A stretch of DNA of 64,000 nucleotides from Sphyrna mokarran. Its lineage: Eukaryota. The position numbers were made by a program, and so were the translations under genes. The DNA lies in the NCBI GenBank assembly GCA_024679065.1, contig JAGIQG010000009.1, positions 81,406,001-81,470,000 of the forward strand, in the 5' to 3' direction. Below, piece by piece: positions 3,828 through 14,852 of the stretch. Every line of letters starts with the position of its first letter. The first letter of the stretch is position 1. A model generated the notes under the pieces. That model saw nothing but the letters and a program-made list of their open reading frames with translations, ran no database searches and had not been told where the DNA came from.

Positions 3828-4162
3828 CTAACACTCTAGGCATTCTGAACTCCTGACACTCTTGCTGAGGGGAGAGGAGAGGCTCACGTGGGTGAGGGCA
3901 CAGGAGAAGCGAGCATTGGACTCCCAGTCGGAGCCAGAGAGGGTCAGCAGGCTGCTGACGCTGTAGGTGTTGTCTGAAGCTCGCAGGTAGTTGCTGGTCT
4001 GAATCCCGTTGGAAATGGCTGCACCGTCCTTCTTCCACTTCACCTCCACCTCATCGGGATAGAAGTGATCGGCAAGGCACACCAGGGTGGCAGTGCCCTT
4101 GGTCTTGACTTCCTCCGGGGAGGGGGGCAGCAGGGTCAGCGTGGGTTGTGAATTCTCACGGG
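3828..4162 (-). CDS. IGKC: Ig light-chain kappa-type constant exon, cluster 1 (C1); C-terminus SSECLEC
   Basis: Polypyrimidine tract and cag acceptor at 4163-4165; phase-1 exon reads (T)RENSQPTLTLLPPSPEEVKTKGTATLVCLADHFYP..W..YSVSSLLTL..W..FSCALTH..SSECLEC*, with Ig C1-set Cys/Trp motifs. Kappa assignment comes from the RSS configuration and V sequence. Confidence 0.95.
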
Positions 4163-5496
4163 CTGAAAGAGAAGAGAAGGAATTTTAATCACTGCCATTT
4201 TCAGGCTTTCAACATCCCGAATATTAACTGGGATCAAATCAGTGTCAATGTTTCAATGTTGCAGAATTCTGAAAATCCGTTCCGGGGGAATGTTTTTAAC
4301 CAGTGCGTAAAAACCCCAACATGAGAAGGGGCAATTTTAGCAGTTTTAGAGAATGAAACTCAGCATGTGGAAGGTGTATCAGTGAGAGAGCATTTGGGTA
4401 ATAATGACCATAATAGATTTAGAGTAGCTCCGGAAAAGGGGAAAGATCGATCAAGAGTAAACGTTTTAAATGGGAAAAGGTCAATTTCACAAAATTGGAA
4501 TTTGTCAAAATGGAAAGGAAACAGTGACTTGAAGGTAAATCAGTGTCAGAGCAGTGGGAGGATATTCGAGCTGGAGATAGAGTTCAGGACATATATGTTC
4601 ATCAAGCAATAGTGTGGGACATTGCAAAGAGAATAACTAAGGATTAAATAGGGCTGATTAGAGAGCAAAAAGGTAACTTGTGTGTGGAAGGACAAAGTTG
4701 ACATTGTGGTTCAGGAGAGGAGGGATTGTGAAATAATTAATGGGATAATTATAGTGAGCGAGGAGGTATTAATGTGTTTATCACCATTTAAAATGGAGAA
4801 ATTCCCAGGGCCGGATGAAATATATCCCAGGATGTGAAGGGAAGAACAGGAAGAAATAACAGAGACTCTGACCATTATTTTCCAATTCTCTCTGGGTACA
4901 GGTGTGGTATGGGTGGACTGGAGGATGGATCACGCTTTTTAAAATTAAAAGCTGATGGAATCCGAGGGAAAGTGGCACATTTGAATTCAAATTAGTTCAG
5001 TGACTGAGGGTAAAGGTTTTGATTTGAAGCTGGTTAAATCATTTTGCAATGTTACTGAAACTGTTAAGAAGATTACTACAAATTCAGCACTGAAATGGTT
5101 AATACTGAGAGTATTTAAAGACACAGTGTCCCTTTAAGAGACTGTTAACCGATCAGGAAGTTGGAACTATTGCTCAGTCTGTCTGGGGGAAACAGGCTGA
5201 CCATCAACAAACCTCAGATCACACACAGATCAGGAGAACTTTATCCCAGAACATTGGAGCAGACTTGGATCAACACACTTCACACAGGATTCTCATTGGC
5301 TGGTGTAGAAGCTTCTAGATTTCATTTCAAACCTTACTGCCCAGCACTGGGCTGAGGTCAAGGGTGAGGCTAGAATTAGTCTCAGTGTCCAGGGGTCAGG
5401 CAGGGTCACTGCTCCAAATGACCCCATGAACTCTGGAGGGTATGAGTATGTGGAGAATGGGTGAGAATCAGGATTAGGAATCTTCAATCTCAAAGA

Positions 5497-5760
5497 CAGA
5501 ATTACATTTCTATAGCACCTGTCACCACCTAAGAATGTCCCAATGTTTTACAGCTTATTGTGCACAGCAAGATCCCAGGGAACAGAGTGAGAAAGAACAG
5601 ATCAGCAGATTTGGAGCGATATTGATTGAGGGATGAATATTGACCAGTTCACCGGGGTGAACTCCCCTGCTCTTCTTCCAATAGTACCATGGGATCTTTT
5701 ACACCCCCTGAGAGGGCAGATATCAGATTGTCTCATCTGAAAGATGGGAGGCCTGTAGTT
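5497..5760 (-). mobile_element. Ancient Deu-domain-like SINE remnant in the J-C intron (paralogs ~21575-21830, ~50295-50560)
   Basis: Resembles the DeuSINE core from recall (AACTCCCCTGCTCTTCTT..ATGGGATCTTTTAC..CCTGAGAGGGCAGA); not verified by search. Confidence 0.5.
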
Positions 5761-5964
5761 TAGATGGGGGGATATGACAGGTGCTGGCCCTATCCCCATG
5801 AAGATTTTGGAAGTGGATGGGGAAAGTGGGAGGTGAACGAGAGAAACATCTTTGTTGCTGCTGAAACTCTTGCCATCTGCTCAGTCACAACTAATAAACA
5901 CACAGACACATCAGACAAACATCAGTCTGTTTCTGTGGATTCTCTGCTGCTTTCAGTTCAATGA

Positions 5965-11404: not shown

Positions 11405-11443
11405 CACACTGACAGCTTCCAGTGCAGGAGCTGTACAAAAACC
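11405..11443 (+). promoter_or_regulatory. 23-bp-spacer recombination signal sequence of J1
   Basis: CACACTG + 23 nt + ACAAAAACC (heptamer has 1 mismatch, nonamer is consensus). Confidence 0.95.
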
Positions 11444-11709
11444 TCTGTCTCTGACTCACTCACTCACTCTTCTCTCTCTCTCACTCCGTCTCTCTCACAC
11501 TTTCTCGCTCACTCTTTCTCTCTCTCTCTGTTTCCCTGAATGTCTCTGTATTTTATTCTGAGTGTTGAGAATTCTAATTTGAGATGATAAATCTTTCTGC
11601 TGCTCTTCATGTCTGAACATGGAGAGTAAGAGGGAAACTCGAGCCCTTCAGTGAGCGATGGACACCACAGGGACTGGAGTGTGTAGTGGACAGTGCCAAT
11701 AATTTGTTA

Positions 11710-13873
11710 ATAATAATAATGGAAACAAAGTCCCAACTCCTGTACTGACAGATTCCACAGGTTTATATAATATTTAATAAACACAAGAAAGGAAACTGAA
11801 CAAATTATTTGCTTATGTATTTAATATTTATATTTATGTGATATATAATAATGGACACACAGTCCCACCTCCTGTACTGACACATCCCACAGTTTTATAT
11901 AATATATAATAATGGACACACAGTCCCACCTCCTGTGCTGACAAATCCCACAGTTTTATATAATATATAATAATGGACACACAGCACCGCCTCCTGTACT
12001 GACACATCCCACAGTTTTATATAATATATAATAATGGACACACAGTCCCACCTCCTGTACTGATACATCCCACAGTTTTATATAATATATAATAATGGAC
12101 ACACAGTCCCACCTCCTGTAGTGACACATCCCACAGTTTTACATAATATATAATAATGAACACACAGTCCCACCTCCGGTACTGACACATCCCACAGTTT
12201 TATATAATATATAATAATGGACACACAGTCCCACCTCCTGTAGTGACACATCCCACAGTTTTATATAATATATAATAATGGACACACAGTCCCACCTCCT
12301 GTACTGACACATCCCACAGTTTTATATAATATATAATAATGAACACACAGCACCACCTCCTGTAGTGACACATCCCACAGTTTTACATAATATATAATAA
12401 TTATTATTAATAATTCTTATTATTACATTTATTTATTATTTTATTTTTATATGTTATATAAAACTGTGGGATGTGTCAGTACAGGATGTCGGACTGTGTG
12501 TCCAATATTATATATTATATAAAACTCTGGGATGTGTCAGTACAGGAGGTGGACTGTATGTCCATTATTATATATTATATAAAACTGTGGGATGTACCAG
12601 TACCGGAGGTGGGACTGTGTGTCCATTATTATATATTATATAAAACTGTGGGATGTGTCAGTCCAGGAGGTGGGACAGTGTGTCCATTATTACATATTAT
12701 ATAAAACTGTGGGATGTGTCAGTACAGGAGGTGGGACTGTGTGTCCTTTATTATATATTATAAAAACCTGTGGGATGTATCAGAACACGAGGTGGGACTG
12801 TGTGTCTATTATTATATATTATATAAAACTCTGGGATGTGTCAGTACAAGAGGTGGGAATGCGTATCCATTAAGATATATAATATAAAACTGTGGGATGA
12901 GTCAGTACAGGAGGTGGTGCTGCGTGTCCATTATTAGATATTATATAAAACTGTGGGATGTGTCAGTACAGAAGGTGGGACTGTGTGTCCATTATTATAT
13001 ATAATATAAAACTGTGGGATGTGTCAGTACAGGAGGTGGGACTGTGTGTCCTTTATTATATATTATAAAAACCTGTGGGATGTATCAGTACAGGAGGTGG
13101 GACTGTGTGTCTATTATTATATATTATATAAAACTGTGGGATGTGTCAGTGCAGGAGATGGGACTGTGTATCCATTATTATTTATTATATAAAACTGTGG
13201 GAAGTGTCAGTGCAGGAGGACGGACTGTGTGTCCATTATTATATATTATATAAAACTGTGGGATGTATCAGTACCGGAGGTGGGACTGTGTGTCCATTGT
13301 TATATATTATATAAAACTGTGGGATGTGTCAGGACAGGAGGTGGGACTGTGTGTCCATCATTATATATTATACAAAACTGTGGGATGTGTCAGTACCGGA
13401 GGTGGGACTGTGTGTCCATTATTATATATTATATAAAACTGTGGGATGTGTCAGTACAGGATGTGGGACTGTGTGTCCATTATTATATATTATATAAAAC
13501 TGTGGGATGTTTCAGTACCGGAGGTGGGACTGTGTGTCCATTATTATATATTATATAAAACTGTGGGATGTGTCAGTACAGGAGGTGGGACTGTGTGTCC
13601 ATTATTATATACTATATAAAACTGTGGGATGTGTCAGTGCAGGAGATGGGACTGTGTGTCCATTATTATATATTATATAAAACTGTGGGATGTGTCAGTA
13701 CAGGAGGTGGGACTGTGTGTCCATTATTATATATTATATAAAACTGTGGGATGTGTCAGTACAGGAGGTGGGACTATGTGTCCATTATTATATACTATAT
13801 AAAACTGTGGGATGTGTCAGGACAGGAGGTGGGACTGTGTGTCCATCATTATATATTATACAAAACTGTGGGA
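11710..13873. repeat. 61-bp minisatellite, orphan cluster: inverted arm (11710-12400, 1 degenerate + 9 units) and forward arm (12454-13873, ~23 units)
   Basis: Unit AAACTGTGGGATGTGTCAGTACAGGAGGTGGGACTGTGTGTCCATTATTATATATTATATA; orientation switches across an AT-rich spacer at ~12400-12454. Confidence 0.97.
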
Positions 13874-14852
13874 TTATAAATTATAAATGATTATAAATGA
13901 TTATAAATGATCTGGATGAGGGTATTGAGGGATGGATCAGTAAATTTGCAGATGATACTAAAGTTGGTGGTGTGGTAGATAGTGAAGATGGGTGTTTTCG
14001 TTTACAGAGTGACTTGGACAAGTTGCAGAGCTGGGCCGAGAGGTGGCAAATGGAGTTTAATGTGGAAAAGTGTGAGGTAATGCACTTTGGCAGGAACAAT
14101 AAATGTGTAGAGTATAGGGCTAATGGTAGGGCTCTTAATAGTGTTGAGGAACAGAAGGATCTTGGTGTATGTGTCAATAGATCCCTGAAAGTAGGCAGTC
14201 AAGTGGATAAAGTTGTTAAGAAGGCTTATGGAGTCTTAGCTTTTATTGGTAGGGGGATTGAATTTAGGAGCCGCAGCATCATGTTGCAGCTGTACAAAAC
14301 TCTAGTGCGGCCGCACTTGGAGTATTGTGTGCAGTCCTGGTCGCCACATTATAAGAAAGATGTGGAGGCATTGGAGAGGGTACAGAGGAGGTTTACCAGG
14401 ATGTTGCCTGGTATGGAGGGCAGGTCCTATGAAGAGAGGTTGAAGGATTTGAGGTTGTTTTCGTTAGAAAGGAGGCGGCTAAGAGGGGATCTTATTGAAG
14501 CATATAAGATGATTAGAGGTTTAGATAGGGTGGACAGTGATAGCCTTTTTCCTAGGATGGAGAAAGCTAGCACGAGGGGACACAGCTTTAAATTAAGGGG
14601 TATGAGTTATAGGACGGATATCAGAGGTAGGTTCTTTACTCAAAGAGTGATTAGGGAGTGGAATGCCCTGCCTGCAGCTGTTGTAGATGCGCCAAGTTTG
14701 GTGGCGTTTAAGAGGTTAGTTGATAAGTATATGGAAGAGAAGGGAATGATTTAGTTAGGAGGGGCATTGCTTTTTATTTTGGTCGGCACAACATCGAAGG
14801 CCGAAGGGCCTGTTCTGTGCTGTAATGTTCTATGTTCTATGTTCTATGTTCT
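13874..14852 (+). mobile_element. Young 5-prime-truncated CR1 LINE at the site of the missing V1
   Basis: Open 285-aa RT C-terminal frame (FADD); (TATGTTC)n tail; left flank is minisatellite, right flank is the C-downstream sequence of the next cluster; no target-site duplication. Confidence 0.95.

Follow-up and report, generated by a model that had tools for sequence, protein, structure and literature searches.

A V-less J-C unit in the immunoglobulin kappa array of Sphyrna mokarran, probably left by a recent LINE-associated deletion

Elasmobranch immunoglobulin (Ig) clusters are generally described as rearranging internally. A review (PMC5192425) holds that promoters appear to be tied only to variable (V) segments and that all available data favour within-cluster joining, and the first-pass annotation of the DNA treated here likewise took within-cluster joining as established. 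Nurse shark Ig heavy-chain (IgH) genes join only within a minilocus (PMC2435157), and a 2025 paper words the rule as joining "usually" within the cluster (PMC12227049). For shark kappa light chains the rule is hard to test because of the many near-identical copies. Here we analyze a 64,000-nucleotide stretch of Sphyrna mokarran DNA (the window; assembly GCA_024679065.1, contig JAGIQG010000009.1, positions 81,406,001 to 81,470,000), which is part of a shark Ig kappa (NS4/type III) array and carries three of its 27 units. One of the three, J1-C1, consists of a joining (J) segment and a constant (C) exon and has no V segment. This unit and the resolved array make the within-cluster rule directly testable for shark kappa.

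We consider it probable that J1-C1 is a kappa cluster recently decapitated by a deletion associated with a long interspersed nuclear element (LINE), and that it is now silent or nearly so. In the proposed mechanism, insertion of a LINE, or repair of a break patched by one, would have removed ~11-17 kb containing the leader, V1 and the promoter. Because the promoter would have been lost together with V1, J1 would be neither transcribed nor opened for RAG, and V2 and V3 would go on recombining with the J of their own cluster, at a distance of 0.8-1.1 kb. The recombination signal sequence (RSS), the splice sites and the reading frame of J1-C1 would survive solely because little time has passed.

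The kappa array and its V-less unit

Searches of the genome's own DNA for V, J and C exons, the counts from which are lower bounds, returned at least 26 V, at least 27 J and at least 29 C exons, which occupy the interval from 81.08 to 81.86 Mb (~780 kb) of a single contig. Fifty-nine stretches of 10 kb were examined, which take in all V-J regions and C exons together with several of the spacers and amount to most but not all of the 780 kb. The array consists of 27 units at a spacing of ~28 kb, of which 19 lie on the minus strand and eight on the plus strand. All 26 V segments are unjoined and carry a 12-RSS, 25 being open and one containing a stop, and each has its own J at 0.3-2.1 kb. A single J of the 27 is without a V, that of J1-C1. 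The composition of one leader-V, one J and one C holds in the other units (one of which has three C exons) and fails in J1-C1. Distinct sequences are found for 24 of 26 V exons and for 25 of 27 C exons taken with their 3' untranslated region (UTR).

The absence of V1, already reported at first pass, was borne out by blastn, tblastn and the whole-genome DNA search. In the window and the 59 stretches blastn detected 26 V exons and 26 leaders, with no V, leader or V remnant between C2 and J1. The tblastn search yielded no extra V, its 26 matches all being at 70% identity or above, and a leader/TATA probe for the promoter region had no match near J1 in the window and the 59 stretches. Displacement or inversion of V1 to another site was also considered and was ruled out, as all 26 V segments found have their own J.

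The other parts of the unit are as the first-pass annotation had described them. The J1 coding segment (LTFAKGTKLRL; 11370-11404, minus strand) is flanked by a 23-RSS (11405-11443; CACACTG-23-ACAAAAACC on the plus strand) in the modal version, common to 19 of the 27 J, and by a GT splice donor (11369-11368). C1 (3828-4162, minus strand) is an open kappa constant exon of 110 amino acids (Pfam C1-set, E = 2.8e-23), with an AATAAA poly(A) signal on the same strand (3456-3451) at the offset seen in most paralogous C exons. Its best relatives are shark Ig kappa light chains, to which identity is at most 90% (82-90% among the top 22; 83% to the nurse shark entry). The J1-C1 intron contains a young LINE fragment (6063-6809). 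J1 and J2 have identical coding sequences, which are common to eight of the 27 J, and the introns diverge from base 30 onward.

C1 has two private markers, each absent from the other 28 C exons: the base at 4110, which lies 53 nt into the exon, is an A, and 2 nt are deleted near 3842. The deletion constitutes a terminal frameshift by which ECLEC replaces ECA and a second cysteine is added. The frameshift is confined to C1, as 27 of the 28 other exons end in ECA and one is broken. No ECLEC ending was found among 33 database relatives, a weak negative given a protein database clustered at 90% and composed mostly of gene models. Of 72 words sampled from the C1 exon and 3'UTR, a fraction of at most 0.58 was matched in any of 24 sequencing runs, all of them contigs and not raw reads; these fractions are uninformative on expression, assembly or other individuals.

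Between the J1-C1 flanks and any other cluster examined, identity reaches 95.8-96.2% at most, and the unit differs by 4-5% from the closest paralogue. This marks J1-C1 as an old member of the array and not a fresh J-C copy or a haplotype duplicate. A recent J-C duplication from C2 or C3 was specifically ruled out, the flank identity being only 91-96%.

On the minus strand the window reads V3-J3-C3, V2-J2-C2, J1-C1, in the order and single orientation first described for it. V2 (29159-29719) and V3 (56446-57006) each comprise a leader, an intron and an open V exon, V2 matching Pfam V-set. The 12-RSS of V2 (29159-29186) is perfect and that of V3 (56446-56473) has one mismatch, in the nonamer. 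J2 (28006-28079) and J3 (LTFGKG; 55613-55686) include 23-RSS at 28041-28079 and 55648-55686, and are followed by the constant exons C2 (19845-20173, ending in ECA) and C3 (48647-48975). V with a 12-RSS and J with a 23-RSS in a shared orientation is the configuration of an elasmobranch Ig kappa minicluster. A scan of the window gave these two 12-RSS and, with that of J1, three 23-RSS, where 0.05 per pattern would be expected by chance; none of 100 shuffled sequences reached the observed counts.

Several further features of the array were recorded. Orientation switches head-to-head near 81.63-81.66 Mb, and a single inverted unit lies at 81.358-81.366 Mb. The cluster at 81703163-81705258 carries three C exons in tandem at intervals of ~880 bp; the second of them is frameshifted and 85% identical. 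The V at 81663622 bears the in-frame stop, and the J at 81084976 lacks 4 nt at the splice donor, with GT kept in the same frame. None of the 26 V is germline-joined to a J, as against about 10% of nurse shark NS4 genes (PMC2193156). A second minisatellite, of 44 bp, is located ~2.5 kb upstream of V2 and V3 (32225-32769 and 59575-60293). Copies of the C-downstream flank at 81513905 and 81644593, far from any C exon, suggest remnants of lost or rearranged units.

The break upstream of J1 and the loss of V1

Proceeding upstream from J1, the normal J flank continues to 11703 and gives way to an inverted piece (11703-12401) made up of part of the V-J 61-bp minisatellite and an inverted copy of the flank that follows the array of repeats, with AT-rich filler at the joints. 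The minisatellite then resumes in normal orientation for 23.5 units (12443-13874); this tract appears to be the remnant of the V1-J1 interval, and it starts without a V RSS. Three tandem ATTATAAATG copies follow (13875-13911, plus strand) and overlap the start of a 5'-truncated young LINE (13897-14854, plus strand), which ends in an ATGTTCT tail abutting the C2-downstream flank, a sequence that follows C in all clusters; the junction with that flank is at position 14852. Reversed minisatellite units occur in one of the 27 V-J intervals, that of J1. The 5' end of the LINE is thus joined to the V-J minisatellite via short templated repeats, and its 3' tail to the C2-downstream flank with no target-site duplication.

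The LINE differs from the nearest copy examined by 10 mismatches in 946 nt (98.9% identity) and is 98% identical to the fragment in the J1-C1 intron, which lies in the opposite orientation. Its 285-codon open frame includes the end of a reverse transcriptase (RT) domain, with a Pfam RVT_1 match (E = 5e-05) that falls below the curated cut-off. We take this ATGTTCT-tailed type to be CR1-like. Given the near-identity to another copy and the open RT frame, the loss of V1 looks recent. The 4-5% divergence of the unit, set beside the youth of the LINE, points to J1-C1 as an old cluster that has suffered a recent loss.

Each of 17 paralogous sites examined lacks the LINE junction and retains the flank that is gone at C2. 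Across 12 other cluster pairs, 10.7-17.3 kb separate the corresponding site from the V-J interval that follows; on this basis the missing DNA is estimated at ~11-17 kb and would include V1 and its promoter. Compared with the paralogous clusters, the locus has the attributes of a LINE insertion-associated deletion: a LINE occupies the junction, the target site is not duplicated and target sequence is missing.

The missing V could in theory be an assembly error, which we regard as very improbable. The array is repetitive, and gaps of N elsewhere (81353435, 81376978, 81531810 and 81588748) adjoin two cluster pairs that have identical V exons. The window itself contains no N. The usual error of an assembler is a switch from one homologous copy to another, which would not produce these junctions, as they are novel sequence: all 31-mers across them are unique among the stretches examined (61/61 at 12380-12470, 51/51 at 13850-13930 and 41/41 at 14830-14900). 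Furthermore, the J1-C1 unit is diverged by the 4-5% noted above from every other cluster, and the whole-genome DNA search found no leftover V. The count of 27 units, on the other hand, may exceed the true number by one to three owing to the identical V exons of the gap-adjacent pairs. Pairs of clusters that lie beside N gaps and are identical in V or C sequence may be either recent duplications or assembly duplicates.

A germline RAG event was ruled out as the cause of the break. The breaks lie inside the minisatellite and at the LINE tail, not at an RSS heptamer, and the J1 RSS is kept; neither a fused V-J nor a break exactly at an RSS heptamer is present at J1. The LINE junction retains the bases that precede CACAGTT of the repeat unit. 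As an observation in its own right, the 61-bp unit, CACAGTT-23 bp-ACACAGTCC, is a weak RSS look-alike in V-side orientation. The minisatellite is found in all 27 V-J intervals (in the window also at 28371-29153 and 55964-56440) with 1 to 29 units, and the variation in unit number accounts for V-J spacings of ~0.3 to 2.1 kb.

Several points weigh against a recent decapitation followed by silence. That J1-C1 is silent we infer, and the deletion is deduced from paralogues, not from a pre-deletion allele. Most paralogues have the end of an older LINE ~75 bp away from the site of the junction, so that the LINE insertion may have been followed by a separate deletion. C1 shows no clear decay: relative to most paralogues it has three synonymous and zero missense substitutions, and its five private variants are within the range of the other C exons (0-27). 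The changes are too few for a test of selection on C1. Regarding the within-cluster rule, the IgH loci of PMC2435157 are at least 120 kb apart, whereas the kappa clusters here, at ~28 kb, are much closer, and sharks do form out-of-cluster trans-joins of IgH V to T-cell receptor (TCR) delta (PMC12227049). Taken as a decapitated cluster, J1-C1 exemplifies ordinary birth-and-death in an Ig array, with a break that is unusually readable.

Inter-cluster joining and expression of C1

The first-pass annotation had proposed that 12/23-compatible deletional joins V2-J1, V3-J2 and V3-J1 are possible. Geometrically they are, and the separations it gave, about 17.8 kb from V2 to J1 and about 28 kb from V3 to J2, measure 17,781 and 28,432 bp. 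The possibility is not special to the orphan, though. The array offers 702 V-J pairs, of which 188 are non-own and deletional and 296 non-own and in opposite orientation, so that inter-cluster joining is a possibility of the array as a whole; given both orientations, inversional inter-cluster joins are in principle possible too. The sole geometric distinction of the orphan is that V2-J1 is the shortest V-to-foreign-J distance, the other 23 measured being 21.6-307 kb. The geometry of an editing substrate, a downstream J with an intact RSS and an upstream 12/23-compatible deletional V, exists at J1 just as in the 188 non-own pairs.

It is conceivable, if unlikely, that upstream clusters have captured J1-C1 as a second J-C, with RAG joining the V and J of neighbouring clusters: V2 would make the primary join, and V3 and V segments beyond it a secondary join that deletes V2-J2. 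The outcome would be a newly formed V-(J-C)2 unit through which light chains could be edited. The modal 23-RSS, donor, open C and poly(A) signal of J1-C1 would all serve it, as would the short V2-J1 distance, and there are precedents in zebrafish Ig light-chain (IgL) genes, where V-J joining between clusters has been shown (PMC3014032), and in mouse kappa editing, where linear RAG scanning captures nearby deletional V segments (PMC13190342). The promoter is lost, however, and a LINE and a partly inverted minisatellite stand directly upstream of J1. For every V, a J of the same cluster lies at 0.3-2.1 kb. The reviews report that sharks join within clusters (PMC5192425) and that leapfrogging from one mouse lambda cluster to another is very rare (PMC3014032). 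As for the intact signals, these are expected under neutrality. Because the loss of V1 looks recent, an intact J1 RSS says little: by our arithmetic, with ~26 signal bases and the risk of nonsense in 370 coding bases, signals escape damage without selection in 64-80% of cases at 0.5-1% divergence. A J Immunol paper of 2017, which deals with isotype exclusion among shark light chains, is reported to state that shark IgL organization precludes secondary rearrangement. Neither inter-cluster V-J joining in shark kappa nor a description of the J1-C1 unit was found in a literature search that covered a minority of the subscription papers.

These considerations bear on two suggestions made at first pass. 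Receptor editing receives no specific support, with 188 compatible pairs in the array, signals that would be intact after a recent loss in any case, and the promoter gone. A step toward translocon organization is likewise unsupported: a translocon has a pool of V segments, without J or C of their own, upstream of shared J and C, and here all 26 V have their own J.

Expression of C1 without any V-J1 join is quite improbable. It could take the form of sterile J1-C1 RNA, of V2-J2 read-through spliced to C1, or of intronic switch-type recombination, and it would be helped by the intact acceptor and poly(A) signal of C1, which lies on the same strand 16 kb downstream of C2. Inter-cluster switching has in fact been reported for shark IgH (PMC5192425). 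Nevertheless, C2 has an acceptor and poly(A) signal of its own, and the promoter-region probe found no match near J1.

The same ambiguity affects the transcripts proposed as a check at first pass. A C1-tail transcript carrying a V was to be searched for, but a V2-C1 mRNA would not prove a V2-J1 join: J1 and J2 are identical in coding sequence, and the same mRNA could arise from a V2-J2 join by splicing of a read-through transcript, from switch-type recombination or as an RT chimera. A V3 complementarity-determining region joined to an FAKG J, considered as a marker of J2, is non-specific, since FAKG is encoded by 15 of the 27 J. At the DNA level J1-C1 is a natural reporter, or barcode, for any V joined to J1 must derive from another cluster. 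V-J1 joins, if they occur, would overturn the within-cluster rule and mean that sharks have a way to edit their receptors; if the capture of J1-C1 by upstream clusters were true, a deletion caused by a transposon could start the move from cluster to translocon.

Comparison with described systems

The closest described system is the NS4 (Ig kappa, type III) miniclusters of the nurse shark, with which the present array shares the leader-V-12RSS, the short interval, the 23RSS-J and the single C, as well as a copy number in the tens of near-identical units (about 50 estimated; PMC2193156). It differs in that linkage is resolved here, with 27 units ~28 kb apart in both orientations and none germline-joined, in the 61-bp minisatellite of its variable-length V-J interval, and in the presence of one V-less unit. 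Germline RAG joining has been described for NS4 (PMC2193156); the break at J1 is not of that kind. V-less units in a tandem Ig array are also known from IgNAR of the white-spotted bamboo shark, in which V is present in only four of seven units and lacking in three (PMC8692893). Those units are of heavy-chain type, and in the present case the position of the break is known, at a LINE junction.

Among systems that join between clusters or edit, V2-J2-C2-J1-C1 has the V-(J-C)2 geometry of mouse Ig lambda, and its joins would be deletional (PMC3014032). The zebrafish IgL joins, by contrast, are inversional and demonstrated from cDNA. With mammalian Ig kappa editing the locus shares an unused downstream J with deletional V segments upstream; in mouse kappa a single C serves J segments arranged in tandem, and the recombination centre is defined (PMC13190342), whereas here there is a C for each J, and the promoter of J1 has presumably been lost. 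Finally, the break resembles human L1 insertion-associated deletions, which likewise have a LINE at the break, no target-site duplication, 5' microhomology and a missing target (PMC1920257). The LINE at J1 is not an L1, its 3' tail is intact, a minisatellite inversion is adjacent, and the likeness is judged on paralogues.

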